A stretch of DNA of 45,221 nucleotides, counting the filler, from Jimgerdemannia flammicorona (lineage: Eukaryota), in the NCBI GenBank assembly GCA_003990765.1. It is 2 parts of 2 records of this genome, joined end to end, with 100 filler letters (N's around TTAATTAATTAA, not from the genome) between each part and the next. Parts side by side here need not be neighbours in the genome. Positions count along the whole stretch, not along the records: positions 1 to 22,564 come from RBNJ01001248.1; 1 more part is not named here. The stretch is one strand, 5' to 3'. Position 1 is the first letter of the stretch; every line of letters starts with the position of its first letter. Under the pieces are notes generated by a model that saw only the letters and a list, made by a program, of their open reading frames with translations, was not told the origin of the DNA and made no database searches. Shown piece after piece: positions 1 to 39,787 of this stretch. The position numbers and the translations under genes were made by a program.

Positions 1-16
1 AAAGTACAGGTTTAGG

Positions 17-140
17 ATGCTGGCATTATTTAGTATCACATCAAAATGCTAGTGCTGGAATAATTTTGCATCACCTCAGAATACTGATGCTGGCATTATC
101 CAGTATTACATGAGAATACTGGTGCTGGCATTATCCAGTT
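17..140. repeat. ~35-bp degenerate tandem repeat (about 4 units) inside the LTR
   Basis: Core TGCTGGCATTATCCAGT recurs at ~35-bp spacing. The E2 LTRs have only about two units at the equivalent place. Confidence 0.7.
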
Positions 141-151
141 TAACAAAGAAC

Positions 152-964
152 TTAGAGCAGAAAGTTCAGGATCATGGAGGCTTCATCATCATCATCACTA
201 AAGGAGATAAGATCTGCGAATTCGTCATACAGGTCATACATTTTGCATATGTCACATGGGATGACGTCATCACTGATGATGTCATCACATTCAGCTGTGG
301 CAGGAAAATTGGGAACAAGATCTGAAGCTCTCTAGTCTATGAGGTTCTCTTCCACAAAATAGAGAACAAATGTAGAGTCTTGGGGAGGTCTAACCTGGAT
401 GCTTGGGCCTTGGAATACTGAGATCAATCCTTGCAGAAATTGGTCTGGGTTATTCTGAAGGATAGGGTGTCAGAAGTCTTCTACTTCTTCACTGTTGAGA
501 GTGATAGTGGACCAGGCTTCTGTAGCCACCCTGGCTTCTAGTGCATTGATACAGCAGGATGATAGGTCTCTGAAGTCTGAGACTCTAACATACTCCAAGT
601 TGGGGAGCAATCATGGTGCATGCCTGAAGATCTGATAGATCTTCTTAGCTGTCCTTGTTTTGCATATATCCATAGGAGTGGCATCTTGTAGCTCTTGGAT
701 GCTGGCTTGTGGGAACTCCCAGCAGAGGAGGTTTCCTATTTCATACTCCTGCCATATTTGGAGGCATTCGGTAGCAATGGTGATCCTTGTTTCTATTTCA
801 CAGTGGTAGAGAATGAAGTAATAAGGGTCTGCAGTACCCAGGTTGACACTAGGAGTCCTTCTTGAGCGAGTCCTCATAGCTCTTCTGATGTCTTGGAACA
901 TCCTTTCCTCAACTGAGATATCTTGGTGATTCCTTGACCTTGAGGTTTGGTGGGCAGCAGGCAT
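152..964 (-). pseudogene. LTR-encoded accessory ORF (~270 aa, unknown function), copy 1
   Basis: ATG at 964, TAA at 152-154, one frame (813 nt): MPAAHQTSRS...QEYEIGNLL...AKKIYQIFRHAP*LLPNLEYVRVSDF...DDDEASMILNFLL*. The few internal stops are explained by G>A/C>T changes. Confidence 0.8.
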
Positions 965-2664: not shown

Positions 2665-3119
2665 TGTAATGTAGCAGATGCTAAGGTGGGCAAGTACATC
2701 AGATTTCTTTATCTTGAATTCTTGTCTTCTTGACTCCCAGAGTCAGTAGTTCCTTGAGGCCAAATGTATTTAAGAGGTAATCCCAAAAGTTCTTTTATCA
2801 GTATACTTGTTCTTTTTCTAACACTTTCAATCTGAGGTTTATTCACTCAAAGATACTGGGTTATTTATACAAGTTTGCTAGCTATGAGATGGTTACTGAG
2901 TTATGCAGCTGAGTTATGAGTCATTTAGACAATGTCTAGAAACTTAGACAATGTCAAAATGCTATACTAAATCAGAGTGTTCAATTTGGACAATGTCTAG
3001 AAATTTAGACAATATTGAAATTGGTGACTGCTAACTATAAAACTATACTACTTTGGGAATGGGTGTGATCAAGTGTTTATTCCCTATTTTCTTCTTCCTA
3101 ATTCAGCTATACCATCACA
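2665..3119 (-). repeat. E1 3' LTR (455 bp)
   Basis: Direct repeat of 8875-9333, TGTAA...TCACA on the + strand. Preceded on the minus strand by the PPT. Confidence 0.95.
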
Positions 3120-3134
3120 ACTTCCTCCTGAATA
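3120..3134 (-). promoter_or_regulatory. E1 polypurine tract
   Basis: TATTCAGGAGGAAGT directly before the 3' LTR on the minus strand. E2 has TATTCAGGAGAAAGA at the same position. Confidence 0.8.
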
Positions 3135-3210
3135 GATGGTCTCATCTCTGAGGCATCTATTTAAACTCCCATGCTTCAACTGTCTGTATGGTTTTGTACT
3201 GTTCAATTTG

Positions 3211-3618
3211 CTACATGACTGTCTCCCAATGATGTCTCCTTACTTTATCAAAGTCGGTAGAGGTTACTCCTTGCAGGTGGGCTAATGCTGATTCATCTTC
3301 TCGAAATAGCTTGTGGATCCTTTTGGCGATGGTGATCTGTGAGTAGGAGAGTTGGCACTCTGCAATCCAGTCTTCTTTGGTCTTTACTGGATCCTGGTTG
3401 AGCACCTGTCCAAGCTTGAAGTACTCTTGGAACTCTGCCCGATGTTGGTAGGCACTAAAATGTGAGATCTGAGAGAGATGAGTCTGCACAATACTCTGAA
3501 TACTATCATAACATTTCTCTATAGTCAGAGGTTTGGTGGTGCACCATTGTCTTTCAATAGCCCTTTGTGCAGCACTAGTGATCTTGAGTGCTGTTGCAGT
3601 GTTCTGGTTATTGGCCAT
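3211..3618 (-). CDS. E1 accessory ORF (135 aa; perhaps ~153 aa if the TAG is a mutated CAG), unknown function
   Basis: Open ORF between pol and the PPT. Its ATG (3618-3616) overlaps the last pol codons (pol TAA 3610-3608). It shares the QEY..G..L / AK.I...FR / L..V...DF pattern with the LTR ORF of E2. Confidence 0.72.
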   Translation of the reverse strand: MANNQNTATALKITSAAQRAIERQWCTTKPLTIEKCYDSIQSIVQTHLSQISHFSAYQHRAEFQEYFKLGQVLNQDPVKTKEDWIAECQLSYSQITIAKRIHKLFREDESALAHLQGVTSTDFDKVRRHHWETVM

Positions 3619-6600
3619 GGTACTTCTTGAGTCAGTTTCGGTGAATGGTGGTGGGGATTATTGTGCCTGAGGGCTTTCATAGTCGGAAAGTGGTCCCTTT
3701 TATATCTTATACCAGGTAAGGTCCTTCCCATTTAGGGTCCAGTTTTCATGACCAAGAAGCTTCTACCATATTCCGATACACCAGGACTTCATCTCCTATC
3801 TTGATAATCTCCAGGGGCTTGTGGGTTTTTTCCACATTGTTCCATTGCAGTGCCTGCACCTTGATTATATAATCCTCTGCCTTTTTCCTGATCTGGTGCA
3901 ATCTCCATATCTCCATGTCCATATGCTTCCAAATTGCATCATTACTTGCTGACAAACTTCTACCAGAACTTTCTTTGCCAAATAGCATTTCTCATGGTGT
4001 AAAGTGGGTGCTTTGTGATCGTATATCCTGCAGAGTGGATAATGCTATTGGAAGATAGTGGTCCCAGTTTCTGTATTCATCACAGATCTTGGCCATGATG
4101 TTCTTGAGGGTCTTGTTAGTTCTCTCTGCTTGTCCGTTTCCTTGTGGGTGATATGTGGTGGTCTTGATGTGTTGGATCTTGTACTTTTTGTAAAGAATCT
4201 CATGGAACTGGTTGACAAATTCTGTTCCTCTATCTGTGGTAACTTGCTGCAGGGTTTTGAATTGGCAGATGATTTCTCTGTGTAAGAAATTGGCAATTGA
4301 CTGTGCATTGGCTTCCTTGAGGGGTCTGGCCTCTACCTATTTTGTAAAAAGGTCTACTATCATGATGATGTATCTGTTGCCAGTTAATGTCAGGGGTAGG
4401 GGGCCAATTACATCCATTGCAATGTGGGCAAATGGTATCAGTTCGATGTCTGCTGATCCAGGGGCTTGATCTCGTCAGTCTTGTTTCTGTTTCTGGCATT
4501 TGTTACAGGTCCTGACAAATTGTCTGATATCTTCTCCCATTCCAGGCCACCACAAGGTTCTTCTTGCTTTGTCAAATGTATTTGTTCCTCCTACGTGACC
4601 TTGTTCGTGTACCTCTTTCATCACTTGATCCTTCCGGTGCTTGGGAATGACTAATTGTTGTCCTTTCTTAAGTATTTCTCCATCAGTTTCGAATTGTTTC
4701 CATGTCCAATTAATAATTGTTTTTGTCCATTCTTCCAGATGTGGGGGCATCTTTCGCTGCCTCAGGTAGCTGATGATTCCATAATATAGCTCCCTATTCA
4801 TGGTAATTTTGTTGGGGTGGGGTCCTTCGGGGTGTCTGTGAGAGGACATCGGTATTGGCGTTGGTTCTTCCAGGGCAGTAGATGATTGTGACATCGTATG
4901 CTTACAGCTTCATGATCCATCGGGCATAGATCCCCTTGGGCTCACTGGTAGTGAGCAACCAGGTGAGTGCCGAATAATCTGTCTGGATGGTGAAGTGTCT
5001 GCCAGCCAGATAGTAGTGGAACTTCTCCACAGCCCAGATGACTGCAAGGCATTCCAACTTGTATGATTCATAGGACTGCTTGGCTCCTCAAGTATCTTGG
5101 CTGAGATAAGCTACCACATATTTGGCACCATTCTTCTTTTGTGCGAGGACAGCTCCAAGTTCCATTGCACTGGCATCTATCTGCAAAATAAACTCTTGAG
5201 TCCAGTTGGGTCTTCTCAGGATTGGGGCCTGTGTCAATCTGATCTTGAGCTCATCAAAGGCTAGTTGCTGCTGCTGAGTCCACTGGAACTTGGCCTCTTT
5301 TCTAAACAGGTCATAGATAGGGCTGGCAATGTGGGAGAATCTTCTAATAAATCTTCTGTAGTAGGATGCAAGTCCCATGAAGGCTCGGGCTTCAGTGATA
5401 CTGGTAGGTACTGGGTATACTGCTACTGCTTTGATCTTTGTAGGGTCTGTATATATTCCTTCACAGTTGATGATATGTCCAAGGTATGCGATTTCTTCTT
5501 CTCCAAACTTGCATTTCTTAGGCTTGATGTAGAGGCCATGTTTATGAAGCCTTCTGAGAATTTCCTCGATGTGTTCCAAGTGCTCCTTGGCAGTTTGGCT
5601 GAAGATGATCACATCATCTACATATACCATTATCTATTTTTCCATAACATCCCTGAAGATGCTGTTTATCATTCACTGGAAGCTTGCTGGTGCATTGCAC
5701 ATTTCAAAGGGCATGCAGAGATAGACATAGGTTCTATCAGGGGTGATGAAGGCTGATCTTTTGCTGGCTTCTGGTGTAAGGCCAATTTGGTAGAATCCTG
5801 AGAACAGATCCAAGGTGGTATAGAATCATGATTCATTCTCCAGCATGATGAGAATATTGCCGATGTTGGGCAATGGTTGTCTGTCTTTCTCTGTGACCTC
5901 ATTGAGTCTTCTATAATCTGTGCAGAGTCTTGGTACAAATTCTCCTGGTCGGCTTCCTTTCTTGAGTACAAGGACAATAGGGGAAGACCAAGGGCTGCTG
6001 GCTTCTTCGATGATACCAGATTCCTCCATTTCCTTGATTTCTGTTTTGAGCCATTCTCTGTAAGCTGGTGGAATGGGGCAGGCCTTCTGATAGATTGGCT
6101 TTGCATCTCCAGTATTGACATCATGGTAATACAAGGGTTTCTTGATCTTGATCTCCTTGAAGTCTGTGGCCAGTACATCCTTGAATGTATACAAGAGACT
6201 CTGTGATACTTCTCTGAGTGGGAAGTTTCTTCCGATTGTGTAGGTGTGTTTGTCTTGGCTTTCCTCCTTCTTGTACTCCAATTCGGTAATCTTAGTTGCT
6301 GCAAGGACTTCTCTTCCTGTAGAGCCGAATCTAGCTCTTCCTCGCTGAGTCTGTCTGATGTTTGCAATCTCCTTGATTCTTGGATTAAGAACAGGTAGGA
6401 TGAGTATTTGCACCAGCTGATCCTTCTTTCTTACTTCAAATGGGATTGTTGAGTTGTAGTTCCTGACAAGGAGAAGGATTTCTCCAGTATAATCTGAGTC
6501 GATGACTCCTCCTTCTATAGATATTTCGCTTTTCACCAGGCTACTCCTTGTCTTGAGGATTCCGACATGGTTTGGTGGGATAGTTACTTCAATTCCTATT

Positions 6601-8818
6601 CCTAGGATGGTTGTAGTCTGTGGTTCGAGTATTGTATATGTTGTTGTAGACAGGTCCATTCCAGCTGCATTTTCTGATTTGTACTATGGCAGGACTGCAT
6701 CAGGGTGGATCCTCCATCTTGACTGTGATATCTTCATCCTCATCATCACTGTCATCCAATAGCTCTGGTGGTCTATCTTCTGGTTCCTCCTGATTCTTCT
6801 TTGGCTTGTTGGTGATCTTTTTCACCTCAATGATACAAGAGTAGCAGCGATCCAAGTGCTGGGCACAGTACATTCTTTCACCATGGGGGCACCTTCCTAG
6901 TGGGGCATAATCATCTGCGATTCTTATATACCATTCTTCCTCTGTCAATTGCTTGCTTTTTCCTTTCTTCACAGTAACTATATAGGCTTCTTCTTCTTGA
7001 TCTTCCTCCATCTTGGAGTGGACTCCTTTGTGGACATTGATGGGAATTCTGATCTTCTTTCCCCAGTAGACAATCTGCATCTTCTGTGCGCTGAGATCAA
7101 TCATTGTCTTGGCTTTGTGAAGCCATTGATTGCCAATGAGGATATCATAGTTAGTTGCATTGGTGATGATGACATCCACAGGGATAGTGGCCTCTCCGAA
7201 CTTGATTGGTATATCTCGGATCTTTCCCAAGAGTGTTGCTCGTGTTCCATCAGCTGTAATGAATACCAGTTTGGTGGCTTCTTCTATTTCCCAGCCTAGG
7301 TGGTCTACTGCTTTCTTGGTGATGAGACATTCTCCTGCTCCCGTATCAATAATGGCTTCAAAGATCTGGTTCTTGATCTGGCAGGTAGCATAGGCTGATG
7401 TTTTCCAGTTATCTTCACTCTCTTCATCTGAATCTTCTTGTGTATTGTTGGCTTTGATTATTCTATAATCTTGGTCTTTGCTGATGTCTGAGATTCCTGT
7501 CCTCATTTGTTGTCTGAAAGTCGGAATTTCCACCAGCTGGCTGAAGGTTGCATTGACCTTTTGGTCCTTGAGGTCCTTGAAGATATCATACTTGAAGGTC
7601 TTGCTCTTGTACAATTTCTGTTCCTTCTTTCCTTCGCTTGATGGGATAGTGTTTCAGATAATATCTTCTACCGCTCATTCAAGTTCAGCATCTTGTTCCA
7701 GCTCCATATCTTGATTAGCTTCTCCCTGCTGAATCTCTTTTTCATTTACCATTTCTGGTTGTCTTGTCTGTGTCTGCACCTTCTTGGGAGGTCTGCTCAC
7801 TGGTTTCTTGTAGGGGCTGGATCAGATATCCTTCTTGCTTGAGATAGCAGGGTAAGCTTCCTATTCCTCCCTCTCTTCCTCGGATTCTCCAATCTCCTTG
7901 AAGGTGATAGTGTTTGCTTGTTCGCAGTTCCTGGTTGCATTGCTTGGATTGGCCTTTTGCTTGGTTTCTGTCATGTATTCAGAGGCATAGTGGCCTTCTT
8001 CTCTACAATTATAGCATGTTATTGATCATCTTGCGTTTGTAGCAGCAAACTTCTGTACTGGCTTCTTCTTGAACTCTTTGACTATATCACTGAGGTGTGC
8101 AGTCATTTCTGCAAACTGTTTGGCCAGTTCCTCTATTGGGTCGACCCTTCTCTGGTCTTGTGTTTGTAGTTGTGTATTCCGGTTGACTATGGTAGTCAGG
8201 ATTGTATTGGTGACTCTTGGTGCTTGTTCGATTTTTACTCTGGTTATCCTTTTCATTGTATGGCCTTGAGGGTGTCTGGCAGTCCAGTATCTTTGGGTGT
8301 AGGTAATGTTCTGTCCCAGGTCCAGTAGTGTTGGGGTAGATCGAATGGCTAAAGCGATTTCTTGGTGAATGCCTTTCATAAAGGTATTCTTGGTCACTTG
8401 GTCTTGAACTGCATCGAGGTAGTCAGCAAGGACTATTTGATGTCGGATTCTTGTATAGAATGTGTTTGGGTCTTCAGACATTCCTTGGCAGATAGTATTC
8501 AGTTGATCTTTGAGTACCTGTTTGATTTCGTCTATATAGTAGGTTGCTTGGAGCCAGGCCTTGAAGGCCAAGATTCTTGCTGGATCATCAGCTCCTTGTA
8601 CATTAGCTGCAGTAAACATGATTCTTGCTGGGCCTCAGAGGCTCACAGGGAGTAGGGCTACTTATTGTGCTGCTGATAAGATTCTTATAGCAGCATACTG
8701 CTCGAAATCATCAATGAAGGTGATGATTGATTTGTCAGAGGTATATCCATGGAATATGGGTAGTCTCATATCCATTCTGTCTGATTGTGTTGTATGAGTT
8801 CTGGTTGTGGTTATTCAT
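3608..8818 (-). pseudogene. E1 gag-pol polyprotein (Gag, CCHC knuckle, aspartic protease, dUTPase, RT, RNase H, integrase) with stops and frameshifts
   Basis: CYNCREEGHY; IIDTGAG; AGMDL/RSS/GVIDSDYTGE; SPWSSPIVLV, DYRRLN, YVDD; IDAS..LGAVL; integrase zinc finger (HEQGH...CNKC) and KWEGPY. Confidence 0.93.
6315..6700 (-). other. dUTPase domain within E1 pol
   Basis: Trimeric dUTPase motifs in order: AGMDL, KTRSS, GVIDSDYTGEI, LVQI, RGRARFGSTG. Confidence 0.93.
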
Positions 8819-8874: not shown

Positions 8875-9333
8875 TGTAACATAGTGGACACTAAGGTGGG
8901 CAAGTATGTCAGATTTCTTTATCTTGAATTCTTGTCTTCTTGACTCTCAGAGTCAGTAGTTCCTTGAGGCCAAATGTGTTTAAGAGGTAATCTCAAAAGT
9001 CCTTTTATTGGTATACTTGTTCTTTTTCTAACACTTTCAATCTGAGGTTTATTCACTCAAAGATACTAGGTTATTTATACAAGTTTGCTAGCTATGAGAT
9101 GGTTACTGAGTTATGTGACTGAGTTATGAGTTATTTAGATAATACATATCTAAAAACTTAGACAATGTCAAAATACTATACTAAATCAGGGTATTCAATT
9201 TGGACAATGTCTAGAAATTTAAACAATGTCGAAATTGGCAACTGCTAACTATAAAACTATACTACTTTGGGAATAGGTGTGATCAAGTGTTTATTCCCTA
9301 TTTCCTTCTTCCTAATTTGGCTATACCATTACA
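8875..9333 (-). repeat. E1 5' LTR (459 bp)
   Basis: Direct repeat of 2665-3119. Differences are mainly C/T and G/A transitions plus a small indel. Confidence 0.95.
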
Positions 9334-10179
9334 ATAGTTATAAAAACTTCTTTTAGAATATAATTCTCAAGTATACTCTTTCTCTAGTTTATTGGATTAT
9401 ATGAGAAAATATATCAATATTGTTATAAGTCTTCTCTACTTTATAGATAATAGTAATTTTATAATATTGTAAAATTAGGATCTAGTGGGTAAGAATTTTA
9501 ATAGAGTATTTATAATAGAATAGCTATTTGAGAGAAATATAATTAGTTATCAGAATAAATCTTTTTTTTAATAAAATAATACTTAAATAAAATAACTACT
9601 CAAATAACTATAAGATATTCTAATTTGATATTACTATAATCTACTTATTATTTATTAATAGCTCAGCTTATATAAGCTATTATATAGTATTATTAATTTA
9701 GTCCTCTTTAGGCAGAAATTGTTCTAAGGCTATTCTTAGAGATATTTATATATAATATAAATAATTTTTGTTAATTATATTATATAAAAACTGATATTAT
9801 AGTTATATAATACTTGAGATCTTAAAGGCTTGTTTTTGTAATTTCTTTTATTTATATATTACTTTCTTTTTAAATAGAGTTCAGATTGAAGCCAAAGTTT
9901 TAGTGAAAATTCTAATAAATCTTCTATAATAGAATATTAGTATTAAGAAGAATAAAACTTCTGTAATAAAACTATATACTAATAGAATTAATATATTGTA
10001 GAAAGTCAAAGATAACTTTTGGCTCTAAGTTCTAAGTTCTTGAGAAAGTGCTGAGTTCTAATTGCCTATTATAGTAGAGTCTAGATATTACTTTTAGATT
10101 TTTATACTAGTAGAGGTACCATACATATATCTTAAGTTTATCAGGCTCAGAATTATTAACAAGTCAAATCTGAGAGTTC
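9334..10179 (-). pseudogene. Heavily decayed gypsy RT C-terminus/RNase H (host of E1, right part)
   Basis: Relics FYYRRFIRIF, LQKQAF and KLEYLIVI*VVILFKYYFIKKRFILITNYISLK*LF. Orientation and domain order are continuous with the integrase relic left of E1. Confidence 0.7.
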
Positions 10180-11000
10180 TGTAATAAGAATACTACTTTA
10201 TTCTTAGGTTTAGAAAAAGTAGAGCTGAGGTTATAATATACTCAATATAGAGAGTATTTATACATATTTGAGGCTATGACTAAATATATATAGTATACTA
10301 GTTATATTCATATATAGTTATACTACTTTAGATAACTATAATTACTAGTTAGAAATTCTATAGAAATTTTTATAGAAATTTTTATTGAAATTTCTATTGA
10401 AATTTTCAGAGACTTGTAAATATATGTAATAATTCATTATATTCTTCTTTTTTTTACTTGAGCCTACTCATTGGACTCAGTATTAAACTCTAAATATTCA
10501 TTAAATTGAAGGACAGTATACTAAACTACTTGAAAAACAATTTTGCTCTATTATTTATTACTCAAGTTGATAGTATTTTTAGGAGATACTCTATAGAGAT
10601 AGTTGAAAACTTGGGATTAGATACAGAAAAGAACATAGAGTCTTTTGGTAACTATATAAGTATAGTTGTTAATGAAAAGACAAACTTGTTATTTGATATC
10701 ACTGAGAGTAGCTTATTGATAGATAAGGTATTCTATCTTATAGTACTTCTTAAGTTTTTATTAATAGCAGAAAGTCTAGAAGTATTAGATTCTTCCAAGA
10801 TATTATTAGGCTTCATTTAGATCAGAGTTTCTAGAGATTTATATATTAACAGATAGTAGTTTAGTAGAATTCCATTAATATTTAATTATTCTAAAAATAG
10901 TGGTAGTAATTTTATTCTTAGTTTATTTTCAATATTATTACTAGGTACTTATATTAAAAGAGATGAATTATCTATATGAAATTGTTTTATGATATTTATA
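10180..11000 (-). repeat. Putative 3' LTR of the chromovirus remnant
   Basis: Follows a purine tract (AAAGAGAAG, 11009-11001), starts TATAAAT (mutated TGT) and ends ...TTATTACA at 10180. Contains a ~12-bp tandem array at ~10350-10410. No second copy in the window to confirm the boundaries. Confidence 0.4.
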
Positions 11001-11084
11001 CTTCTCTTTATCAGAGTTATTTAGAGATATAACTGTCTTTTGGAAATTTCATCAGAATTTTCATTATACTAGATATTTATATCA

Positions 11085-13330
11085 GGTTATTACTTCTTCT
11101 ACATTTGGCAAAAGATTGTCTTCTTTTTCTCAAATAGTATTATACTCAGGGTATCCTTTCCATTTCATAAGATAGTACTGAGTGGGCTTGGTAGTTTATT
11201 CAAATTAGTAATTCTTATAATTCAAAATATAGTCTACTTCATATTTTAGTTATTGATTAATAATTACTAAGTCTGGAGGTGATACAGTTCTCTCTTTGAA
11301 TATATTTGAAATATATAGCTAAAGTTGAAATATATAAAACACTGAGTAAATTCTTTCTAATATTATTAAAAGATCCAACTTATATATAACAGATCTATAT
11401 TTTTTAAGAATCTTGAATAGTTTAATATAGTGAGATCTAAGTTTCTTTTTTGGACCTATATTACTCAGAGTTAGATATTAGGTACTGAGTAATACTTATT
11501 TTCCTTTTTTATAAATGACTTCTTTTATTTTTATCAGTATATACTATTTGTATTCTTTATACTTTTATGAGAATATCTTATGTTTGCTGAATATTGTCTT
11601 ATATAATATCAGTAATTTCTTATACTACTGATACTATAGTTTAGATAGTAATTATAGGAGTTTATGAGTATTTTTCATAATTTAAGCAGAATGGCATTAT
11701 CTTAGTACTTGTACTTAAGCTATTATTATATATAAATTTGGCTAGAATCAGCTTTTCATCTTAATTATTTATAATAGATGCTAAGCATCTACTTAAGAGT
11801 TTGATTAATTCTTTCTGTCTGATCATCTGTTTGCAGATAATATACTATAGATATTTTCAGTTATACTTCTAAATCCTTAAAGAGTGTTTGTCAAAAGTTG
11901 CTTATAAACTTTGTATCTTAGTCTGAGATAATTACTGATGATAGTCTGTAGAGATAGAATACATTGTCAATGATAGCTGTACTATTTCTGATACTATTGC
12001 AGTAGTAGTTATCATAATGAAGTAAGCCTGCTTACTGAGACAATTGATAAAAATAATAATTACATCTCTTCTCTTCTTGGTTTTTAGAAATTGGACAATA
12101 AAGTCCATTCTAATATAATCTCAATTTTGAGTGAGAATTGATAGTAATTGTAGAGTACCAGTTGGTGCCTGGTTACTAGACTTATATCTTTAGCAGATAT
12201 CATAGAATATAATTTAATATCAGATGTTATTTTGAGCTAGTAGAAGTCTTAGATAATATATTGGTATATCTTGTCAAAACTCATATATCTAGCTATAGGT
12301 ATATCATATAGTTCTTGTAAGATTTATAAACAGATAGAAGTATCAGAGATCCAGATTCTTATATTATTAAGATATGTATATATCTATTTTGAATAGATAT
12401 ATTTTTATAGACTTTTTTTATAATATTACAATCTTTTTTGAAAATTTGTTTGGTAATTTCTTATATATTATTATCTTTGATATACTTCTTTTTGACTTCT
12501 TCAAATAGACTGGTGATGATATTGCTAATTACAGTAAGGTTATCTGTCTGAGTACTCCAGAAGAGTATATTGACTACTTTATTTTTGGTTCTAGCAATAT
12601 ATATCAAAGAGTACAAGAATCTGCATCTATCAGACTTATCTTTCTATAAGAATTAGCTATATCTAAATATATTAGAGAGTTTGATGATTAGTCTATAAGG
12701 TGAATATTTTGCTAAGGAGAAAGTATCTCTATGCTTATAGAGATCAGATGATAGTAAAGAGTTTCTTGTCTTATATGATATATGATTAAGATTAATATAT
12801 CAATCAGTATTCTCTTGAGAGTATTTATAACTATAGTGTATTTTCTGTTCATTCTTTTTTAATATTAGCTTCCTTCTTATCAAGACTTATAAATAAAGTA
12901 GTATTTATAAAGAATTCTTGAATAAATCTCCTATAATATCCTACTAATCTATTGAATCCTTATAGAGACTTGAGGGTCTTTGAAATAGACCAATTGCAGA
13001 TTGCTTAGATCTTCTTAGGATCAATGGCAATACTATTTTCTGAGATATATATTCTAGATATTCAATTTTCTTCTTGAGAAAATAGTATTTCTTTCTTTTT
13101 GCTAAGAGCTTATATTCACAGAGTATGTCAAAGACTATTTATAGATATTATTGATAGATGATACTACTTGTACTATATATCAGAATGTCATCCAGATAGA
13201 TCTGAATAAATACTCTAAGGTATTTTCAAAAGATATCATTTATTAGTATTTAGAATATTACTAGTATATTAGTAAGGTCAAATAGTATTATATAGAATTC
13301 ATAATATCTAATTCTTGTTTAAAAGACTGT
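11085..13330 (-). pseudogene. Decayed chromovirus-type Ty3/gypsy pol (RT-RH-IN-chromodomain), 5'-truncated
   Basis: TVF*TRIRYYEF..LFDLTN..F...IYLDDILIYS (RT). C-terminal KYEVDYIL...YYLMKWKGYPEYNTI*EKEDNL (chromodomain, ~11085-11280). Confidence 0.85.
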
Positions 13331-13493
13331 TGTAATGATTGGTTCTAGTTTCTTTAAGAAGAAGTGGCTAAATCTGGAAGTTCTAGTTGGCCTAAAATAG
13401 CTCAAAGAGATACTTAAAGGTTCAAATATTCTTGAAGGATTTCTGGGAGAAAATATTTCAAGGTTTATTCAGACAGAGAATAAGAATATTTAT
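13331..13493 (-). repeat. Left part of another LTR, split by the E2 insertion
   Basis: Begins TGTAAT exactly where the chromovirus RT homology stops, and continues after the E2 TSD at 22134. Confidence 0.55.
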
Positions 13494-14960
13494 TGTAATG
13501 GTGACCTCAGAATGATGACATCAGCACAGGAGATAGTCTTTCCTTGCAAGCTATCAGATTGGAGTATAAGAAGATTATATGGCATATGAGATGAGCAATA
13601 ATGACCTACTGTGAGTCATTGTGACCACAGTATAAGCATCCTGAGGAATATAAAAGAAGGATTAAGAAACTGCAGTAACAGCAATCAATAAGACCCACCA
13701 ATTCTAAAATAGCTCAAAGACTTACTACAAACAAAATACCTACTACTCGCTAAACCTTAAGGTCAAGGAACCACTAAGGTATCTCAGTTGAAGAAAGAAT
13801 ATTCCAAGACATCAGAAGAGCCATGAGGACCCACTCAAAAAGGACTCCTAGTGTCAACCTGAGTACTGATGACCCTTATCACTATATCCTCTACTGCCAT
13901 AAAATGGAAACAAGGATCACCATTGCCACCAAATGCCTCCAAATATAGCAGGAGTATGAAATAGGAAATCTCCTCTGCCAGGAGTTCCCACAGGCCAGTA
14001 CTCAAGAGCTACAAGATGCCATTCCTATGGATATATGTGAAATAAGGATAGCCAAGAAGATCTATCAGATCTTCAGATATATACTATGATCAATCCCTAA
14101 CTTAGAGTATATTAGAGTCTCAGATTTCAGAGACCTATCATCCTACTGTATCAATGTACTAGAAGCCAGAGTGGCTACAGAAGCCCAGTCCACTATCACT
14201 CTCAATAGTGATAAAGTAGAAGACTTCTGGCATCCTATCCTCCAGAACAAATCAGACCAATTCCTGAAAGAATTGATCTCAGTATTCTAAGGCCTAAGCA
14301 TCTAGGTTAGACCTCCCCAAGACCCCACATTTGTTCTCTATTTTGTAGAAGAGAACCTCATAGACTGGAGAGCTCCAGATCTCCTTGTTCTCACTACTGC
14401 TGAATGTGATGACATCATTGGTGATGACATCATCCCATACGACATTGAAGCATATGAAAATGATGAATTCACAGACCTCATCTCCTTCGAAGATATCCTA
14501 ATCTCTGATGATGAGGATGAAGCCCCCATAGTTCTAAACTTTCTGCTCTAAGTTCTTTATTATACTGAATAATGCCAGCACCAGTATTCTGATGTGATAC
14601 TGAATTATATCAGTATCCTGAACCTATACAACCATCAGTACTGACCCTGGAACTTAGTAGTTTTAGTTATTGGAATTTATATTTAGCTTTATATCTTAGC
14701 AACTATTGAATTATATTTTGTATAAATACCCCTCTTATTTCCTCTGAAATAAAGTCAGTTCTATTCAGTTCATGTATACACTTTCTTGCAAGCAATCTAA
14801 GAGATAATAAGAAAGTTTAAAGATAAGAAGTTTGAGGACTATAAGACCTTGGGAAGGCACTCCAATAAGAACTTGCTTATAACAAACTTGAGTTAGTCTA
14901 AGAGATACACCTTGAAGAGAATCTGGCATATTTGAAGGACTCAGTGACCACTACATGACA
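13494..14960 (+). repeat. E2 5' LTR (1467 bp)
   Basis: TGTAATGGTGACC...CTACATGACA. TATAAAA at 13649, TATAAATA at 14721, AATAAA at 14748. Confidence 0.96.
13736..14551 (+). pseudogene. LTR-encoded accessory ORF, copy 2 (start mutated ATG>ATA)
   Basis: 816 nt, colinear with the copies at 152-964 and 20905-21720. Confidence 0.78.
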
Positions 14961-18000: not shown

Positions 18001-20298
18001 ACTGTCATCACCAAGAAGGATAGGCAGCCCTTACCAAATATTCAAGAAATCCTTACCACTCTTAGAAGTGAAGCCAAATACTACACCACCTTGGATCTGT
18101 TCTCAGACTTCTATCAGATTGGTCTACTCAAGATGCTAGTGAGAAATCAGCCTTCATCATACCTGATGCCACCTATATCTATCTGCAAATGCCATTTGGA
18201 ATATGCAATACCCCAGTAAGTTTTCAGCAAATGATGAACAGAGTCTTTAGCAATGAGATTGGAAAATAGCTCTTTGTCTATATTGATGATGTGATCATCT
18301 TCAGCAATACTGCATGGGAATATATCAATCACATACAGCTAGCCCTCAAGAAGCTCAAGTAGTATGGCCTCTACATCAAGCCCAAGAAATACAAGTTTGC
18401 AGCTCAAGAAATTGCCTATCTAGGACACCTCATCAACCAGACTGGAATCCACACAGACCCCATGAAGATTGAGGCTGTTGCAGCCTACCCAAGACCCAGA
18501 ACAACTACAGAAGTCCATGCCTTCCTTGGACTAGCCAGCTACTACAGAAGGTTCATCAAAGGATACTCCAATATTGCAGTACCCATCTACAAGCTACTGA
18601 AGAAGGAAACCAAATTTGAATGGACCAAAGAGCACTAAGAAACCTTCAATGAACTCAAGATCAGATTGACCCAAGCACCTATCCTCAGAAGACCAGACTG
18701 GAACCTAGAATTCATCCTGTAGACAGACATGAGTGCTATAGGACTTAGAGCAGTCCTAGCTCAGAAGAAAGATGGATATGAATATGTCATCTCCTATATA
18801 AGCCGAGGTATCTATGGAGCAGAACAGAACTATGAGTCATACAAGCTTGAATACTTAACAGTAGTTTGGACAGTAGATAAGTTCCATTACTATCTAATCA
18901 GGAAACACTTCACCATTCAAACAGACCACTCTGCTCTTGTCTGGCTATTCCACACTCTGAACCCCAAAGAAATATATATCAGATGGATCTACAGGCTGCA
19001 AGAGTATGACTGTACTGTCAAGCACTGCTCAGGAAGAACCAATACCAATGCTGATGCACTCTCAAGGACACCCTGAAACACCCCCAATAAGACCATTCAA
19101 CATGAATAAGGAGCTATACTATGAATTAATCAGCTACCTTGGGCAGCAAAAGATGCCTAACCACCTTAAACCCTGGACAATCACCATCATCAACTGGACT
19201 TGGAAACAGTTTGAACTAAACAACACTATACTCAGAAAAGGAGGAAAGCTAGTAATATCCAAATACAAGAAGTATCAAGTAATGAAGAAAGTACATGAGC
19301 AAGGATACCTAGAAGGAATCAATACATATGACAAGGCAAGAAGAACCATGTAGTGGCTCAAGATGGAAGAAGACCTGCATCAATTTGTCAAAGGGTGTGA
19401 CAAGTGCCAAAAACAGAAACAAGATCAATAAGACCAGGCACCCAGGTCATCAATAATTGAGCCTATTCTCTTCCACTACATCACAATGGATATCATTGGG
19501 CCACTACCAGTAACACTATCAGGAAACCACTATATTATAGTTATTGTAGACCTCTTCACCAAATGGATAGAGGCAGGAGCATTATAAGAAACCAATGCCC
19601 TCTCTATAGCTGACTTCCTGAACTGAGAAATCATCTGCTGCTACAAGACACCAAAGCAAATCTCAACAGACTGCAGCACAGAATTTATCAATGGATTCCA
19701 TGAGATAATGTATCAGAAATACAAGATCCAGCACATCAAGACCACTATATACCACCCTCAAGGAAATGGACAGACAGAGAGAACCAACAAGACTCTCAAG
19801 AACATTCTAGCAAAGATCTCAGAGACATATGAGAATTGGGATAACTATATTCCAACTGCCCTCTCTGTCCTATGAGATATACAGTTACAGAGCACACACT
19901 TTACCCCAAGGAAGCTGCTTTTTGGAGAAGAAGATTCTGATGGAACCTCAGCCACAAATCTAGACCTAACTTAGAGATGAGTTGATGTAGAAATCCAGAG
20001 ACTACACCAAATTAGGAAGAAGGCTGAAGATTAAAACATCAAGTCACAAGTGCTGACAAGGAAGAATGTGGAAAAGAATCACAAGACCCTAGAATCTATC
20101 CAAATTAGAGAAAAGGTTCTACTATATTGAAATATGGTAGAAGCCTCATAATCATGAAAACTGGAGCCCAAATGGGAAGGACCCTTCTATATGTAAGATA
20201 TCAAGAGAACTATCTTCTGGCTTAGAAAAATCTCAGGGACCATACTGCCTACCATAGTACATAGGAACAGACTCAAGAAGTACCACAAACCTATATAA
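15017..20298 (+). pseudogene. E2 gag-pol polyprotein (Gag, zinc knuckle, PR, dUTPase, RT, RNase H, IN)
   Basis: YFRCREEGHYVKNC; IIDTGA; GVIDPDYTGEI/GFGSTG; SPWASPIVL, YIDD; QTDHSAL, NADALSR; KWEGPF; TAA at 20296-20298. Gag (15199) and RT (17497) ORF pieces are in the same frame. Confidence 0.93.
17173..17589 (+). other. dUTPase domain within E2 pol
   Basis: LKVKKFHPEAKIP..GIDL..KTRSS..GVIDPDYTGEI..RIGQ..REQGFGSTG. Confidence 0.93.
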
Positions 20299-20323
20299 GA
20301 GAAGCAAAATGTGATGACTGCCC

Positions 20324-20662
20324 ATGAGGTTCTAGTCTACAAATTGTAACAGCATATTCTGTAACCAGCAGGCTATCTGTCTAGACCATTCTCTAAGGGA
20401 TACAGTACTGGCAACTACTCATCTGTGAGACTTTTGAAGTCAGAGGAGTTCAAACCATCAACTGATTAGTCAAGATCAGAATCAGGCTCTTGCTCTATAT
20501 GAAGAGAGCAACCCTTCACCATCATGCCAAAATACAAAGAGAAGACACCAGCCCATAAATACCACTTTTCGACCCCTTGCCAGAGGTTATAGGATCAGCA
20601 AATTTTTCAGGACTGGACTAATGAATAAGGATGCTCAAGAAGATCCTTATTCAGGAGAAAGA
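20324..20662 (+). pseudogene. Possible decayed extra ORF between E2 pol and the 3' LTR
   Basis: 113 codons from ATG 20324 (MRF*STNCNSIFCNQQAICLDH...). Its three stops (TAG, TGA, TGA) all revert by T>C. Confidence 0.35.
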
Positions 20663-22129
20663 TGTAACGGTGACCTCAGAATGATGACATCAGCACAGGA
20701 GACAGTCTTTTCTTACAAGCTACCAGATCGGAGCACAAGAAGATTATATAGCATATGAGATGAGCAATGATGACCCACTGTGAGTCATTGTGACCAAAGT
20801 GCAAGCATCCTGAGAAATATAAAAGAAGAATCAAGGAACCCTAGTAACAGCAATCAATAAGACCCACCAATCCCAAAATAGCTCAAAGACTTACTATAAA
20901 CAAAATGCCTGCTGCTCACCAAACCTCAAGGTCAAGAAACCACCAAGGTATCTCAGTTGAAAAAAGGATGTTCTAAGACATCAGAAGAGCCATGAGGACC
21001 TGCTCAAGAAGAACTCCTAGTGTCAACCTAGGTACTAGTGACCCTTATTACTATATTCTCTACTGCTGTGAAATGGAAACAAGGATCACTATTGCCACTG
21101 AATGCCTCCAAATGTGACAGGAGTATGAAATAGGAAACCTCCTCTACTGGGAGTTCCCACAGGCTAGTACTTAAGAGCTACAAGATGCCACTCTTATGGA
21201 TATATATGAAATGAGGACAGCTAAGAAGATCCATCAGATCTTCAGGTATGCACCATAGTTGATCCCCAACTTGGAGTATGTTAGAGTCTCAGATTTCAGA
21301 GATCTGTCATCCTGCCATATCAATGTACTAGAAGCCAGAGTGGCTACAGAAGCCCAGTCCACTATCACTCTCAATAGTGATGAAGTAGAAGACTTCTGGC
21401 ATCCTATCCTCTAGGACAACCCAGACCAATTCCTACAAGGATTGATCTCAGTATTCAAAGGCCCAAGTATCTAGGTTAGACCTCTCCAAGACCCCACATT
21501 TGTTTCCTATTTTGTGGAAGAGAACCTCATAGACTGGAGAGCTCCAGATCTCCTTATTCTCTCTGTCACCAAACATGATGATGTCATTGATGATGACATC
21601 ATCCCATGCAACATCAAAGTATATGAAAATGATGAATTCACAGACCTCATCTTCTTTGAAGATATCCTGACCTCTGATGATAAGGATGAAGCCCCCATGG
21701 TCCTGAACTTTCTGCTCTAAGTTCTTTGTTATACTGAATAATGCTAGTACTGGTATTCTGATGTAATACTGAATTATACCAATATCCTGAACCTGTACAA
21801 CCATCAGTATCGACCCTGGAACTTAGTAGTTTTAGTTATTGGAATTTATATTTAGCTTTATATCTTAGTAACCATTGAATTATATTTTGTATAAATACCC
21901 CTCTTATTTCCTCTGAAATAAAGTCAGTTCTATCCAGTTTACTTATACACTTCCTTACAAGCAATCTAAGAGATAACAAGAAAGTTTAAAGATAAGAAGT
22001 TTGAGGACTATAAGACCTTAGAAAGGCACTCTAATAAGAACTTACTTATAAAAAACTTGGGTTAGTCTAAGAGATATACCTTGAAGAGAATCTGGTATAT
22101 TTGAAGGACTCAGTGACTACTATGTGACA
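20663..22129 (+). repeat. E2 3' LTR (1467 bp)
   Basis: TGTAACGGTGACC...TATGTGACA, preceded by the PPT TATTCAGGAGAAAGA. Confidence 0.96.
20905..21720 (+). pseudogene. LTR-encoded accessory ORF, copy 3 (271 aa)
   Basis: ATG 20905 to TAA 21720 in one frame (816 nt). Internal stops are transition-derived. Confidence 0.8.
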
Positions 22130-22564: not shown

Positions 22565-22664
22565 NNNNNNNNNNNNNNNNNNNNNNNNNNNNNNNNNNNN
22601 NNNNNNNNTTAATTAATTAANNNNNNNNNNNNNNNNNNNNNNNNNNNNNNNNNNNNNNNNNNNN
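22565..22664. other. Artificial assembly spacer (44 N + TTAATTAATTAA + 44 N)
   Basis: Exactly 100 bp, symmetric, with a six-frame stop linker. It sits at the LINE poly(A/T) tail. Confidence 0.95.
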
Positions 22665-22729
22665 ATAGTCACTTAGACTCTTCCTTTATTACACCCCTCT
22701 ATTCTATATAAGTACAGTGAACCCACCCC

Positions 22730-25700: not shown

Positions 25701-26365
25701 TTAGACCATAGGTACTACTCTACCTCTAGAGTTCTCTAAATATCTACATCCCAGCATTCAGCTGTCAGAATCCAATCAATTCTCATACTCAGTCTATTCA
25801 CCCAGTATATATAGACTTTCTTTTCACCCCATCATATTCTGCTCTATCCCCTAAGGAGCTAAGGTTCTCTACCTCCTCCTATACATCCAGACTACCACTC
25901 CTCCTGCCTGCACTCCTTCCTCCCTCAGTTCTATCTAACTGTGGATTCTACACTATATTAAAGTCACCTTCCAGAACATCTACTCCTTCCTCTAAGAGAA
26001 CTTCCTCCTCCAAAAAATCTCTAATCTACCCAATCCACTCACCCCTAGCCATAGGGCAGTAGTAGGAGCCAACCCTCACTGGTTCTTACTCAGGTCAATA
26101 CCATTCTCCCCAGACCAAACAGTTACCCCAGCTCCTGACTCCACCCAAATCTCCTCTCCCCCTCCTCACCAGAATTGCCACTTTGCTAATCCAAGCAGTA
26201 GCTTCTCTCCATTCTCTTGTCCACTTTACCCAATTCTCTTCATCCTTATACTGTACATTCTGCATCAGCCTCCAATCTCTTAAGCCAGGTAAAAATGTTC
26301 TTATGCTGTCCAGGTTCCCTTAACCCATTCACATTCAGAGAGAAAATGTTAGTTATACTGTTCAT
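22730..26365 (-). pseudogene. LINE ORF2 (APE endonuclease, RT, C-terminal CCHC region)
   Basis: MNSITNIFSLNVNGL; DFN; SNH (SDH); KNWRLIMLL; DQKKTYD; GDPLSP; FADN; ends PPRGIG*. Confidence 0.9.
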
Positions 26366-26396
26366 AAGAAATAATATTAAATATAAGTCTCATCCT

Positions 26397-28308: not shown

Positions 28309-28459
28309 CCCAAGCCTATACCCTTATCTGACATTCTGCTAGTTAAAGGCCCCAGGTCTATCCAACCCAGTCACACATTTGCTTACTTGCTGGTTACTAT
28401 TACCTTAGTACCTTTCTCCAATAAATAACTTGAAAGTGTGTTGTAAAAGTGTGTGTAAC

Positions 28460-31400
28460 ATAAATTATAGTAGAGAAAGCCTGTGACCTCAGTGGTATAC
28501 TATCCCAAATCAAATAAGTCTACTCTCTGAACCAAAGAAGAAGATTCTCAAAATATAAAAAAAGCAATAAGAAGAAAAGTACAAAGTATCAAATAAGAGA
28601 CTTACTACAAAATATCTACTATCTACTAAATAGTAAGATCAAAAAGTCATCTAGATCCATCAGTTCAAGAATAGATATTTACTAATATTAAGAGAGTTAT
28701 GAGATTGTATATAAGAAAGACCCCAAGTCTGAACTTCTATATAAGAGATCTCTACTACTATACTCTCAACTGCTGTGAAATAGAGATAAGAATCACTACT
28801 GCTACTGAGTATCTTTAGATATAACAAGGATATGAAAAGATATATCATCTCTACTAAGAATTTTTATAAGCCAGCTCTCAAGAAATTGTAGATGCTACTT
28901 GTATAGACAGATATAAACAGAAATTAGCCAAAAGAGTTCATCAGATATTTAGATATATACTCTGGGCTATTCCTAATCTGAAATATATTAAAGTCTCTGA
29001 TATTTAAAAACTAATAAGCCACTGTACAGATCACTCTGAAGAAATAGTTGCAGAAAAAGCTCAATCTACTATTACAGTTAAGAGTAAGGAGATTTAAGAC
29101 CTTTGGAAAGGATAATTCAAATCAATTTATCTATAGTTTGATTGTATTATTTCAAGGCCCTCTCTTGAGAGTCTACTTTTTCCAGAATTTCACAGATATT
29201 TCCTACTTCATAGATAACAATACTATTGAATAGAGACCTTAAGAGTAGAATAACTATATACCTTTTAATAATATCAATGACATCATCTCTCAAAATAACT
29301 TAGAGAATAATAGTGACTTACTTATTTTGCTAGAAGATGATATTAACTACTTTTCTCACTTCCAGAACCTTCTCACTGACTTCAGCACAATTGTGAAGAA
29401 TGCAAAAAATGATTTGGTCAGACCCCCTGAAGAGAAGAAGGATGAGAATGATATAATCTCAGTTATGCTAAATTTTAAGTTAAATGAGAATAGCTCTATT
29501 AGTCAAATTGAGTAAGTTAGTTAGTTAGATAAATAGTAATTGAGTATTAACTAGCTCAATTTATCATAAATATAAAATTAGCCTTATTCAGTTAGTTAGT
29601 CACCTGAATTCCAAAACTATACTAATTAGTATCTTCTAGTAATTATGATAACTAATTATCTAGTCTTATATATAGTCTAAAAACTATTAAATATCCTCTA
29701 ATCTGTAGTGAATAAACCTCAGTCAATTAGTTTGTAATATTAACTTAAGTTTTAAAAGATAAGAAAGTTGAGTGTAAGAACTTTGAAAAAAGACTCCAAG
29801 AGTTGAAGAATTACTCTTACTACCATAAAACTCAAGATATAAGATTAAGACTATTTCAAGATATAAGTCAGTTAGTTAAAATTACTGTAAAATTAGATAT
29901 AAGTCTCAGGAAATCTAGCCAAGGATATCAGAATTGTCAACTTGCCTAGAAACTCAAAAATAATATATAAACTAAATAGCCAGTTATGTGATCAATGACT
30001 TAAGATATATGAACTTCAACTTGACATAAATCCAAATAAATTAAATAGTAGTTGATATGAATATTGAGTCAGAAATATGGTTAAGAAATAAATAGGAGAT
30101 AGTATATAAATAATTAAGAGATACATTGAGCCATATAGAAGCAATAAGAGATATAAATCATGTACTACATTTTAGAGACTTGACTGAGAAAGTTTTCTAA
30201 AGACTTAATTATTTGGCTCAAGAACTCAATAACTATCTATAGTAGAGAATTTAGGAGAAACTAGCCAGCAGTAAGACCAGGGCCAACAATAGCCCACTTT
30301 AGAAAAAGAAGCTCATACTATTATCAGAACAGCCCTCACTCTGTTTAGAACCAGTAGCCAGAAAACTGAATTAGAAAAAAGAAGTGATACAGATTATAGT
30401 TTGATCTTAAAGGAAAGAAAATAACTCAGAGGACAACCTGAGTCTATCTAGATCCAAGACCCAGAACATGAAGAAGATTTTCCTGAAGAATACTAGATCC
30501 TAATCTATAGAAGAGATTTGGGCAGAAGTGACTATATTACTACTGTCATCACTTAAGCTACTTTACTAGATTAAGTATATTTTGAAATATCTGAAGGAGA
30601 AAAAGACTACTATTTCTACCTTTTAGAATAAGAGAAAGATGATAATTGAAAAAGTCAACCAGATTATCCAAGAGATGAATTCAACCTTTATCACTACTTA
30701 GACAGTAATATAGACCCTTGGTAAGATGAACAGAACTCCACTGCTTCACAACAGCAAGGGGCAGATAAACTGAAAATTAGCTATATTAGTTCTATTTTAA
30801 TTACCAGAACCTCAGTACTCTGGTTCTTTATATTCCAATACTATCTATAAGAGACAAGAAGCTTTAAATCTCTCAGTACCTCAGTACTTAGTGACCACTA
30901 TCACCTAATTAGAGAACCACTATCATCAAGAACCCTTATCCCAGCTTTAATTAGAAGGGTCAGACTCCTTATACTCTCACCAAGATACTATCTTTTGTCA
31001 GTACTAGTAGTTCATCAAGTACCTCTACTATCTCCAGGTTATCAAGAAACTCTACCCCAGAATCAGACTCAGATAGTGAAGATGAATCAAACATAAGCTA
31101 TCTTTAGAAATTCCATAGTACAGACAGTAAATATATCAAGGAATTCTTTAGAGAAATTGAAGTACAAGTAGTAGCTAAGTAGTGAGATGCTCAGAGAAAG
31201 CTCAGAATCATGGAATCACTCCTGAAAGATCCTGTTCTACAGAAGTACAACTAAGTAAAGCAAGTTGGAGGAGATATCTATAAAGTAGAACATATTAACA
31301 ACATTTGAGCAAATAGAGACCATATAGATAGATATCATATTTATAAGACCTGGCTCTATACTTAGTTCAATAGTCTTAAGCATTAATAGAAAATATAAGA

Positions 31401-33826: not shown

Positions 33827-33883
<57 letters not shown>
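33041..33883 (+). mobile_element. 5'-truncated LINE copy with intact poly(A) tail
   Basis: Matches 44650-45221 and 22665-23450. C-terminal CFDCKEC...EHWLGEC motif, AATAAA at 33804, pure A54 at 33830-33883. Confidence 0.93.
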
Positions 33884-39636: not shown

Positions 39637-39787
39637 TTACACACACTTTAATAACACACTTTCAAGTTGTTTATTGGAGAAAGATATTAAGACAATATTG
39701 ACCAGCAAGTAAGCCAATATACATACTAGGTCAGGCAGACCTAGGGCCTTCAACTGGCAGTATGTCAGGAGGGGGTATAGGCTGGAG

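Follow-up and report, generated by a model that had tools for sequence, protein, structure and literature searches.

Results

Two related retrotransposons with an extra gene at the 3′-end

The stretch of DNA analysed here, called the window below, comprises 45,221 nucleotides (nt), filler included, of the genome of Jimgerdemannia flammicorona (GCA_003990765.1). It is a nest of retroelements, which we have named E1, E2, E4 and so on. E1 and E2 are related long terminal repeat (LTR) retrotransposons of the Ty3/gypsy type, and each carries an additional gene: in E1 an open reading frame (ORF) between pol and the polypurine tract, outside the LTR, and in E2 a longer one inside the LTR itself. We have called these genes ORF3 and ORF-L, respectively. 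The two are probably members of one family, and our comparisons suggest that it was the gene, and not the polypurine tract, that changed place. The coordinates of all features are collected in Table 1.

E1 lies on the minus strand between two LTRs that are 91.5% identical, have TG..CA ends, start with TGTGATGG and TGTAATGG and end in ..TTACA. Its pol has the order protease, reverse transcriptase (RT), RNase H and integrase expected for a Ty3/gypsy element, judging from Pfam matches, the YVDD motif and colinearity with L001, a related locus described below. In minus-strand order, Pfam places the protease in 6700-7614, a dUTPase in 5826-6659 and the integrase zinc finger in 4475-4894, and the RT was assigned through YVDD and colinearity with the L001 polyprotein (81–87% amino acid identity). 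The dUTPase (Pfam E = 1.1e-19) sits between protease and RT, and the arrangement is colinear in L001 (837-4619) and in E2. The primer-binding region ACTTGGTGCTCATTGGCTGG and the polypurine tract ATTCAGGAGGAAGT are both common to E1, E2 and L001. E1 is a dead copy: 1,497 codons of its gag-pol can be aligned to L001 and 17 in-frame stops fall among them, so that what is called its pol stop marks where a broken pol ends.

The original prediction had described an extra ORF that overlaps the pol stop and lies outside the LTR, beginning with an ATG 8 nt before the pol TAA in another frame, and this is what we find. The minus strand reads C-ATG-GCC-AAT-AA at this point, which in the pol frame is CAT GGC CAA TAA, so that ORF3 is read in the +1 frame with respect to pol. 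The quoted peptide strings FQEYFKLGQVL and TIAKRIHKLFREDESALAHLQGVTSTDF are both present in it. The statement that the ORF is still open applies as far as the premature TAG in Table 1 and no further: past this codon the frame runs on for another 17 codons, as far as a second TAG (3159..3157) at which the relatives of ORF3 also end; the relatives extend 18 codons beyond the ORF seen in the window.

ORF3 is a conserved gene under purifying selection

ORF3 is a genuine accessory gene of 153 codons, maintained by purifying selection, whose position, length and start context are conserved. A search of 5.8 billion proteins gave 10 candidates, 9 of which matched at E <= 0.01, with 65–82% identity. 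An exhaustive profile search of 1.84 billion representatives returned five matches at E <= 0.001, namely three family members, a divergent protein of 165 amino acids (P0013, E = 1.7e-4) and a repeat protein (P0012). The latter, 455 amino acids long, consists of six tandem repeats, each matching positions 96-130 of the ORF3 profile (motif IA.RI..LF..D...A..L), with E = 6.3e-6 for the whole protein. No relative was found among viral contigs scanned with P0015 and alignment A1.

DNA of a relative came from a metagenome scan, which gave a single locus, L001. It is a relative of E1 (83% nt identity) with a gag-pol ORF of 1,260 codons, and it has an intact ORF3 of 153 codons in the same place, with its ATG in ACCATGG context within the last pol codons and its stop 41 nt before ATTCAGGAGGAAGT and the LTR start. 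Positions 1-77 of L001, ahead of its 5′ LTR, consist of the end of a further ORF3 (..EAWEFE, then a stop) with a polypurine tract, so that two elements are arranged in tandem here, with an LTR in common.

Across the 153 codons, ORF3 of E1 and ORF3 of L001 differ without a single indel, the proportion of differing sites being 0.186 for nonsynonymous (pN) and 0.83 for synonymous (pS) sites; for the gag and pol segments pN is 0.05–0.10 and pS 0.27–0.48. ORF3 is thus constrained to about the same degree as gag (pN/pS ~0.2), but its divergence is roughly double that seen elsewhere in the element. The same is seen at the nucleotide level, where E1 and L001 are 0.80–0.92 identical in 36 of the 37 blocks of 150 columns from the leader through gag-pol (the remaining block is at 0.71) and ~0.9 identical at the end of pol, after which identity drops to 0.65 and 0.63 inside ORF3 (window 3202-3651 against L001 5795-6256). 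As relaxed constraint on the protein does not explain why the synonymous sites are saturated, we infer that the 3′ module with ORF3 has had a separate history from the remainder of the element, that is, that recombination has occurred.

The position after pol is found in a third lineage as well. The ORF3 profile matches E4 at 10922..10527 on the minus strand (hidden Markov model (HMM) E = 1.6e-6, profile positions 9-138), directly after a pol end at 10941-11471(-) with matches to SH3_Tf2-1 (E = 2.5e-7) and Chromo (E = 6.9e-5, below the Pfam cut-off). E4 is a very AT-rich element riddled with stops, and its pol can barely be aligned to that of L001 (28% over 81 amino acids). E1, L001 and E4 thus all have the gene after pol.

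The start codon deserves separate attention, since ORF3 is in the +1 frame and overlaps the end of pol, and the gene could in principle be a C-terminal extension of Pol, produced through +1 frameshifting shortly ahead of the pol stop and never translated independently. Consistent with this, in both E1 and L001 there are 16 open codons of the ORF3 frame ahead of the ATG. These codons are preceded by an in-frame stop in both elements, however, and the ATG with its strong ACCATGG context is conserved in the two elements for which DNA is at hand. All seven protein homologues that span the N-terminus of ORF3 begin at this very methionine, the other three of the 10 full-family matches beginning at an internal one, and E2 and its pol manage without any such extension. 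We consider the extension of Pol very improbable, and the conserved ATG with its context, together with the homologues that start there, favours an independent start for ORF3. What is not conserved is the position of the pol stop, which follows the first base of the ATG by 8 nt in E1 and by 41 nt in L001. In E1 as in L001, the 150 nt upstream of the ATG contain only one TGGGA, at a distance of 112 nt from the ATG, and it falls inside the conserved pol motif KWEGPY.

A longer gene inside the LTRs of E2

E2 lies on the plus strand between two LTRs that are 89% identical. In pol, E2 and E1 are 69% identical at the nt level; E2 also has the same primer-binding region and a near-identical polypurine tract, and its nucleotide similarity to E1 ends exactly at the end of pol (3618 in E1, 20285 in E2). 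The original prediction had noted a reading frame in an E2-type LTR at the edge of the window (964..611(-), 117 amino acids), in which WQEYEIGNLL and RTAKKIYQIFRHAP are followed by a stop and, still in frame, by LLPNLEYVRVSDF. This frame is present as quoted, and it is only the first part of a longer gene. In all three E2-type LTR copies the ORF-L frame is colinear over 263–270 codons, interrupted by 3, 5 and 6 stops. When read through with X at the stops, ORF-L found five proteins among 418 candidates, including one of 271 amino acids with 69% identity over 100% of the length and one of 247 amino acids with 83% identity. All 14 stops of the three copies fall at codons that in the intact homologues are one transition away from a stop, and pN/pS between lineages is 0.38–0.40 in frame, as against 0.93 and 0.66 in two control frames. 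ORF-L is therefore a real gene with an intact form of up to 271 amino acids. A fourth and more divergent relic was found at 28600-29250, for which no LTR pair was detected in the window. We had considered this relic as a post-pol gene of a further element, “E3”; that assignment was ruled out, as Pfam matches to RT place the neighbouring element on the opposite strand and show it not to be Ty3/gypsy-like.

To place ORF-L within the LTR we used motifs. A module of TTGTATAAATA followed 26–27 nt later by AATAAA occurs at LTR positions 252/278 in E1, 251/277 in L001 and 1228/1255 in E2, and it probably marks the border between U3 and R. As ORF-L ends upstream of this module (TATA box at 1228, AATAAA at 1255), it would lie wholly in U3. 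A second TATAAA is found at LTR position 156, 87 nt before the ATG of ORF-L, in three of three copies, which is weak evidence in DNA as AT-rich as this, and the AATAAA of the E2-type LTR lies ~200 nt beyond the ORF-L stop. Just past this stop, a short tandem repeat of ~45 nt (..GATGTGATACTGAATAATGCCAGCA..) was seen by eye at 1-110(-) and 14540-14620(+), its copy number being different in the edge LTR.

ORF3 and ORF-L are probably homologous

Both genes share the motif order [FW]QEY .. IAK[RK]I[HY].[LI]FR .. L .. DF, and the proposal that they form one gene family has fared well, short of proof: the profile comparison is significant and the matches are reciprocal and specific, while the homology itself is no better than probable. 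The first hint is a tblastn search with ORF3 against the window, in which the best match other than itself (E = 0.004, 28% over 61 amino acids) is at 13949-14128, inside the ORF-L relic of the 5′ LTR of E2. In profile-profile alignment with hhalign, ORF3 and ORF-L align over 46 columns with P = 1.1e-4; when the intact ORF-L homologues are added the alignment grows to 110 columns (ORF3 31-135 against ORF-L 16-149, P = 7.3e-5, probability 62.5%), and with the E4 copy added P is 1.2e-4. The result is formally significant and modest, as the hhalign probability across runs is 55–62%. The real score was 34.5; none of 200 column shuffles of the ORF-L alignment came up to it (maximum 22.3, median 12.7), and a reversed control scored 19.8.

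The specificity of the match was assessed by searching 606 six-frame chunks of the window with each profile. With the ORF3 profile the four best matches outside its own family are the four ORF-L loci (E = 4.4e-5, 7.3e-4, 5.4e-3 and 9.1e-3; the next is at 1.4), and with the ORF-L profile the best match outside its family is ORF3 (E = 5.1e-4; the next is at 0.33). P0013, taken alone, aligns to ORF-L in the same register with P = 0.011. Four of five predicted helix starts coincide in the hhalign register (33/18, 81/89, 92/100 and 121/129), in models that are both of low confidence.

Alternatively, ORF3 and ORF-L could be two unrelated accessory genes that were captured independently, in which case the shared motif order would reflect chance or convergence of small helical proteins. 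Such an origin would fit with a sequence identity of ~20%, with the modest hhalign probability, with profiles that are shallow in both families (effective number of sequences, Neff, ~1.7–2.2), and with the fact that ORF-L is 118 residues longer and that its N- and C-terminal parts are unmatched. AlphaFold2 models built from the family alignments are too poor for superposition, with a mean predicted local distance difference test score (pLDDT) of 47.5 for ORF3 and 37.7 for ORF-L, and agree only in the order of their predicted helices. Independent capture is harder to reconcile with the shuffles, with matches that are reciprocal and specific across six frames of the whole window, and with an independent family member that falls into the same register. 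Moreover, the two genes are found in sister elements, with the similarity in pol, primer-binding region and polypurine tract given above, and they have the same place on the RNA. We regard independent capture as unlikely, and homology of ORF3 and ORF-L as the probable explanation.

The gene appears to have changed place

The two architectures that were originally described are real: ORF3 is located between pol and the tract in E1, in L001 and in a third element, and ORF-L wholly in the U3 assigned to the E2-type LTR. They had been explained by a polypurine tract that moved relative to the gene, and here our data point the other way. In E1 the tract ATTCAGGAGGAAGT is followed by the LTR start TGTGATGG, in L001 ATTCAGGAGGAAGT is followed by TGTGACGG, and in E2 ATTCAGGAGAAAGA is followed by TGTAACGG. 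When the flank is included, ..CTATTCAGGAGGAAGT runs into TGTGATGG in E1 and into TGTGACGG in L001, and ..CTTATTCAGGAGAAAGA runs into TGTAACGG in E2. As the tract, its flank and the LTR start are all conserved between E1, L001 and E2, the tract is orthologous in the three elements, with the gene on different sides of it.

If instead the gene had stayed where it was and the tract had moved upstream of it, the LTR would have grown to include the gene. The gene order on the RNA (pol, ORF, R) is indeed the same in both families, and the LTR of E2 is ~1 kb longer than that of E1, the extra length holding the ORF. Apart from the orthology of tract, flank and LTR start, however, this scenario has to contend with a spacer of ~350 nt that separates pol from the tract in E2, and with the failure to find a relic of an old tract or LTR start after ORF-L, where blastn of the E1 LTR against the E2 LTR shows similarity in the TATA box and the ends only. 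A look-alike of tract and LTR start downstream of ORF-L (TGTGAT..CTGAATTA), noticed by eye, was rejected; it lies in a short tandem repeat and has no blastn support. A shift of the tract therefore seems improbable to us, and we favour relocation of the gene itself. The direction may be suggested by parsimony, although for four elements only: with the gene after pol in E1, in L001 and in the distant E4, the U3 position would be the derived one.

The gene could have reached U3 by being duplicated there and later lost from its first location, or by exchange of a 3′ cassette, and our data are compatible with either route. The E2 spacer contains no ATG at the position of the one in E1 (TACCACAAA is found where E1 has TACCATGGC), and no relic of ORF3 was detected in it by tblastn (E <= 10), blastn or HMM search (E <= 10).

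Other elements in the window

Two copies of another retroelement lie in opposite orientation at 22665-28479 and 39616-45221. They are 75% identical, with RT matches near one end (24492-24929(-) and 43439-44155(+)), and a separate copy of the end region is found at 33043-33829. This retroelement is unlike Ty3/gypsy and may be a non-LTR element with a 5′-truncated copy. Left of the copy at 22665 there are two runs of 44 N (22565-22608 and 22621-22664), where the end of the copy is unreadable. Fragments at 9573-9979(-), resembling the RNase H region of the L001 polyprotein (30–47% amino acid identity), and at 39034-39270(-), resembling its dUTPase region (31%), are further debris of related elements. 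The region 9335-13493 has a G+C content of 24%, compared with 38.5% for the whole window; low G+C and the transition-type stops of ORF-L together look like the result of repeat-directed C-to-T mutation. Both features, along with the chromodomain element and the dUTPase located between protease and RT, would point to a fungal host.

Table 1. Positions of the elements, genes and signals discussed in the text, counted along the window.
Feature	Position	Strand	Remarks
ORF3, open part	3211..3618	-	135 codons; ATG 3618..3616 in ACCATGG context; ends at premature TAG 3213..3211
ORF3, full frame	3157..3618	-	153 codons and stop; colinear and indel-free with intact ORF3 of L001 (5795-6256)
TAA closing the broken pol frame of E1	3608..3610	-	first base 8 nt downstream of the A of the ORF3 ATG
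E1 gag-pol	3608..8619	-	protease, dUTPase, RT, RNase H, integrase; broken by in-frame stops
E1 polypurine tract region, ATTCAGGAGGAAGT	3120..3133	-	directly 5′ of the 3′ LTR
E1 3′ LTR	2665..3119	-	TG..CA ends; TATAAA 2869..2864, AATAAA 2843..2838
E1 5′ LTR	8875..9333	-	primer-binding region ACTTGGTGCTCATTGGCTGG then adjoins
Decayed ORF3-like frame of E4	10512..10940	-	directly after the SH3-like and chromodomain pol end of E4
E2 5′ LTR	13494..14960	+	1,467 nt; TATAAA 13649 and 14721, AATAAA 14748
ORF-L relic in assigned U3 of E2 5′ LTR	13736..14551	+	LTR positions 243-1058; 5 stops in 263 aligned codons
E2 non-coding spacer	20299..20648	+	~350 nt between pol TAA (20296-20298) and polypurine tract (20649-20662); no ORF
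E2 3′ LTR	20663..22129	+	1,467 nt; ORF-L relic 20905-21720, 6 stops in 263 aligned codons
ORF-L in edge E2-type LTR (LTR 76-1206)	152..964	-	270 codons, 3 stops; first 117 codons (611-964) noted earlier as LTR ORF
Fourth ORF-L relic	28600..29250	+	47% amino acid identity to E2 copy; 11 stops and a frameshift

Discussion

We find that a lineage of Ty3/gypsy elements carries an accessory gene, ORF3, after pol, and that the sister element E2 carries a probable homologue, ORF-L, in U3. On the genomic RNA both genes would be located 3′ of pol and 5′ of R, and from this common place we would expect them to share a mode of expression. An ORF this far downstream, after ~1,600 codons of gag-pol, would require a subgenomic RNA, re-initiation or a frameshift. 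Our first choice is a 3′-coterminal subgenomic mRNA, which could be spliced or internally started; the second, for ORF3, is re-initiation after termination of pol, and the third is a frameshift fusion. The copy in the LTR, ORF-L, could in addition be transcribed from every LTR alone, with the TATAAA upstream of its ATG as a candidate promoter element and the AATAAA downstream of its stop as a candidate signal for 3′-end formation. Coupled termination and re-initiation is known from caliciviruses, where the termination upstream ribosomal binding site (TURBS) has a UGGGA a few tens of nt upstream and the restart AUG lies within a few nt of the stop. The original prediction had named termination-reinitiation alongside a subgenomic RNA, and for ORF3 a tight coupling of this kind is weakened by the variable distance between ATG and pol stop and by the location of the only UGGGA, 112 nt upstream and within a pol motif.

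As for the function of the protein, the absence of an obvious transmembrane segment had been taken to mean that it is not env-like, and this is borne out by hydropathy, as the best 19-residue Kyte-Doolittle mean is 0.19–0.39 in two ORF3 homologues; it is 0.59–0.74 in the ORF-L homologues, which have no hydrophobic segment either. The protein may be soluble and all-helical. ORF3 is near neutral, with an isoelectric point of 6.8–7.0, whereas ORF-L has 9–10 lysines and arginines within its first 40 residues and 12 aspartates and glutamates within its last 40, and P0013 has 14 such acidic residues within its last 40. Our best guess from these sequences is that the gene could encode a trans-acting regulatory factor that binds nucleic acids, with the layout of a transactivator, namely a basic N-terminus and an acidic tail.

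Taken together, we find it somewhat likelier than the sum of its alternatives that ORF3 and ORF-L are homologous, that the gene moved and that both are expressed in the same way; the function just proposed is a weaker guess. A number of observations tell against this. Besides the low identity, the modest hhalign probability, the shallow profiles and the poor models discussed above, the window copies of both ORF3 and ORF-L are dead, and the distance from ATG to pol stop differs between the two elements for which we have DNA. The E2 spacer has no detectable trace of ORF3, which leaves duplication followed by decay without direct support. The proposed function is a guess from charge layout: Pfam has no family for ORF3, ORF-L or their homologues (for ORF-L none at E <= 1), sequence profiles of the PDB gave one match for ORF3, 2key_A, a putative phage integrase, at E = 0.28 and none for ORF-L, and among the clusters of a protein atlas the two matched only small helical ones, unnamed or unrelated, none of them significantly. 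When Pfam was searched with the 13 members of alignment A5, two of them matched HTH_Tnp_Mu_2 (best E = 0.031) and one matched TBK1_ULD, neither significantly. Three protein-atlas clusters are common to the lists for ORF3 and ORF-L, which is a lead only.

Accessory genes at the 3′-end are known from vertebrate retroviruses. The sag gene of mouse mammary tumour virus (MMTV) is an ORF inside U3 of the LTR, and its product is a membrane glycoprotein. Like sag, ORF-L is in sense orientation and wholly within the assigned U3, so that both LTRs and the 3′-end of the genomic RNA contain it. Unlike Sag, it lacks a hydrophobic segment (best mean 0.74) and has no Pfam match, and it is carried by a Ty3/gypsy element. 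The nef gene of human immunodeficiency virus type 1 (HIV-1) and the bel/bet genes of foamy viruses run across the polypurine tract into U3. As these cases demonstrate, the place of a 3′ accessory gene on the RNA can stay the same whether the gene precedes the border between tract and U3, spans it or follows it. In contrast to nef and bel/bet, none of the elements seen here has an ORF that straddles the tract, and there is no sequence relation between these genes and ours.

Among LTR retrotransposons, ORF3 resembles the post-pol extra ORFs of other Ty3/gypsy elements in that it is a third ORF before the 3′ LTR, an orphan and restricted to a lineage. An “add. ORF” without known function is drawn after pol for fungal chromoviruses in a paper that also mentions the env-like ORFs of Athila and errantiviruses (PMC2864245), and bdelloid rotifer LTR retrotransposons have captured extra ORFs (PMC5408684). 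ORF3 differs from the env-like ORFs in having no membrane segment, and it has no Pfam match. In Botrytis cinerea, Boty-like elements carry brtn (Zhao et al., 2011, cited in PMC8365987), likewise an orphan extra gene in a fungal Ty3/gypsy element, but it is antisense, while ORF3 and ORF-L are both sense. PosPlaTy3-5 of the basidiomycete Postia placenta has its dUTPase between protease and RT, as do E1, E2 and L001, and the text on this element does not describe the ORF3/ORF-L family (PMC2864245). For ORF0 of Retrosat2, the account of that ORF does not say that it lies in an LTR. A literature keyword search of limited coverage returned no description of the ORF3/ORF-L family, nor of any gene located in U3 for fungal LTR retrotransposons. 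Extra post-pol ORFs and a U3 ORF are thus already known as kinds, and it is the orphan family of accessory genes that is new.

Little is understood about the additional genes that LTR retrotransposons carry, and examples from outside plants and animals are few. If the homology is true, ORF3 and ORF-L would provide a clean natural case of a 3′ accessory gene that has crossed the border between polypurine tract and U3, as illustrated by nef, bel and sag, and the 3′-end of these elements would be an exchangeable cassette. Going further, and only tentatively, we speculate that this undescribed gene family of probably fungal Ty3/gypsy elements has been relocated in cassette form between U3 and the internal 3′ region, and that in the U3 form every LTR, solo LTRs included, could be a self-contained gene with a TATA box and a poly(A) signal of its own. 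Its product would be a transactivator-like regulator in which a helical core lies between a basic N-terminus and an acidic tail, and it could act in trans on the family or on the host even after the element itself has been lost. An LTR that bears a gene in this way would alter what a solo LTR can do to its host.

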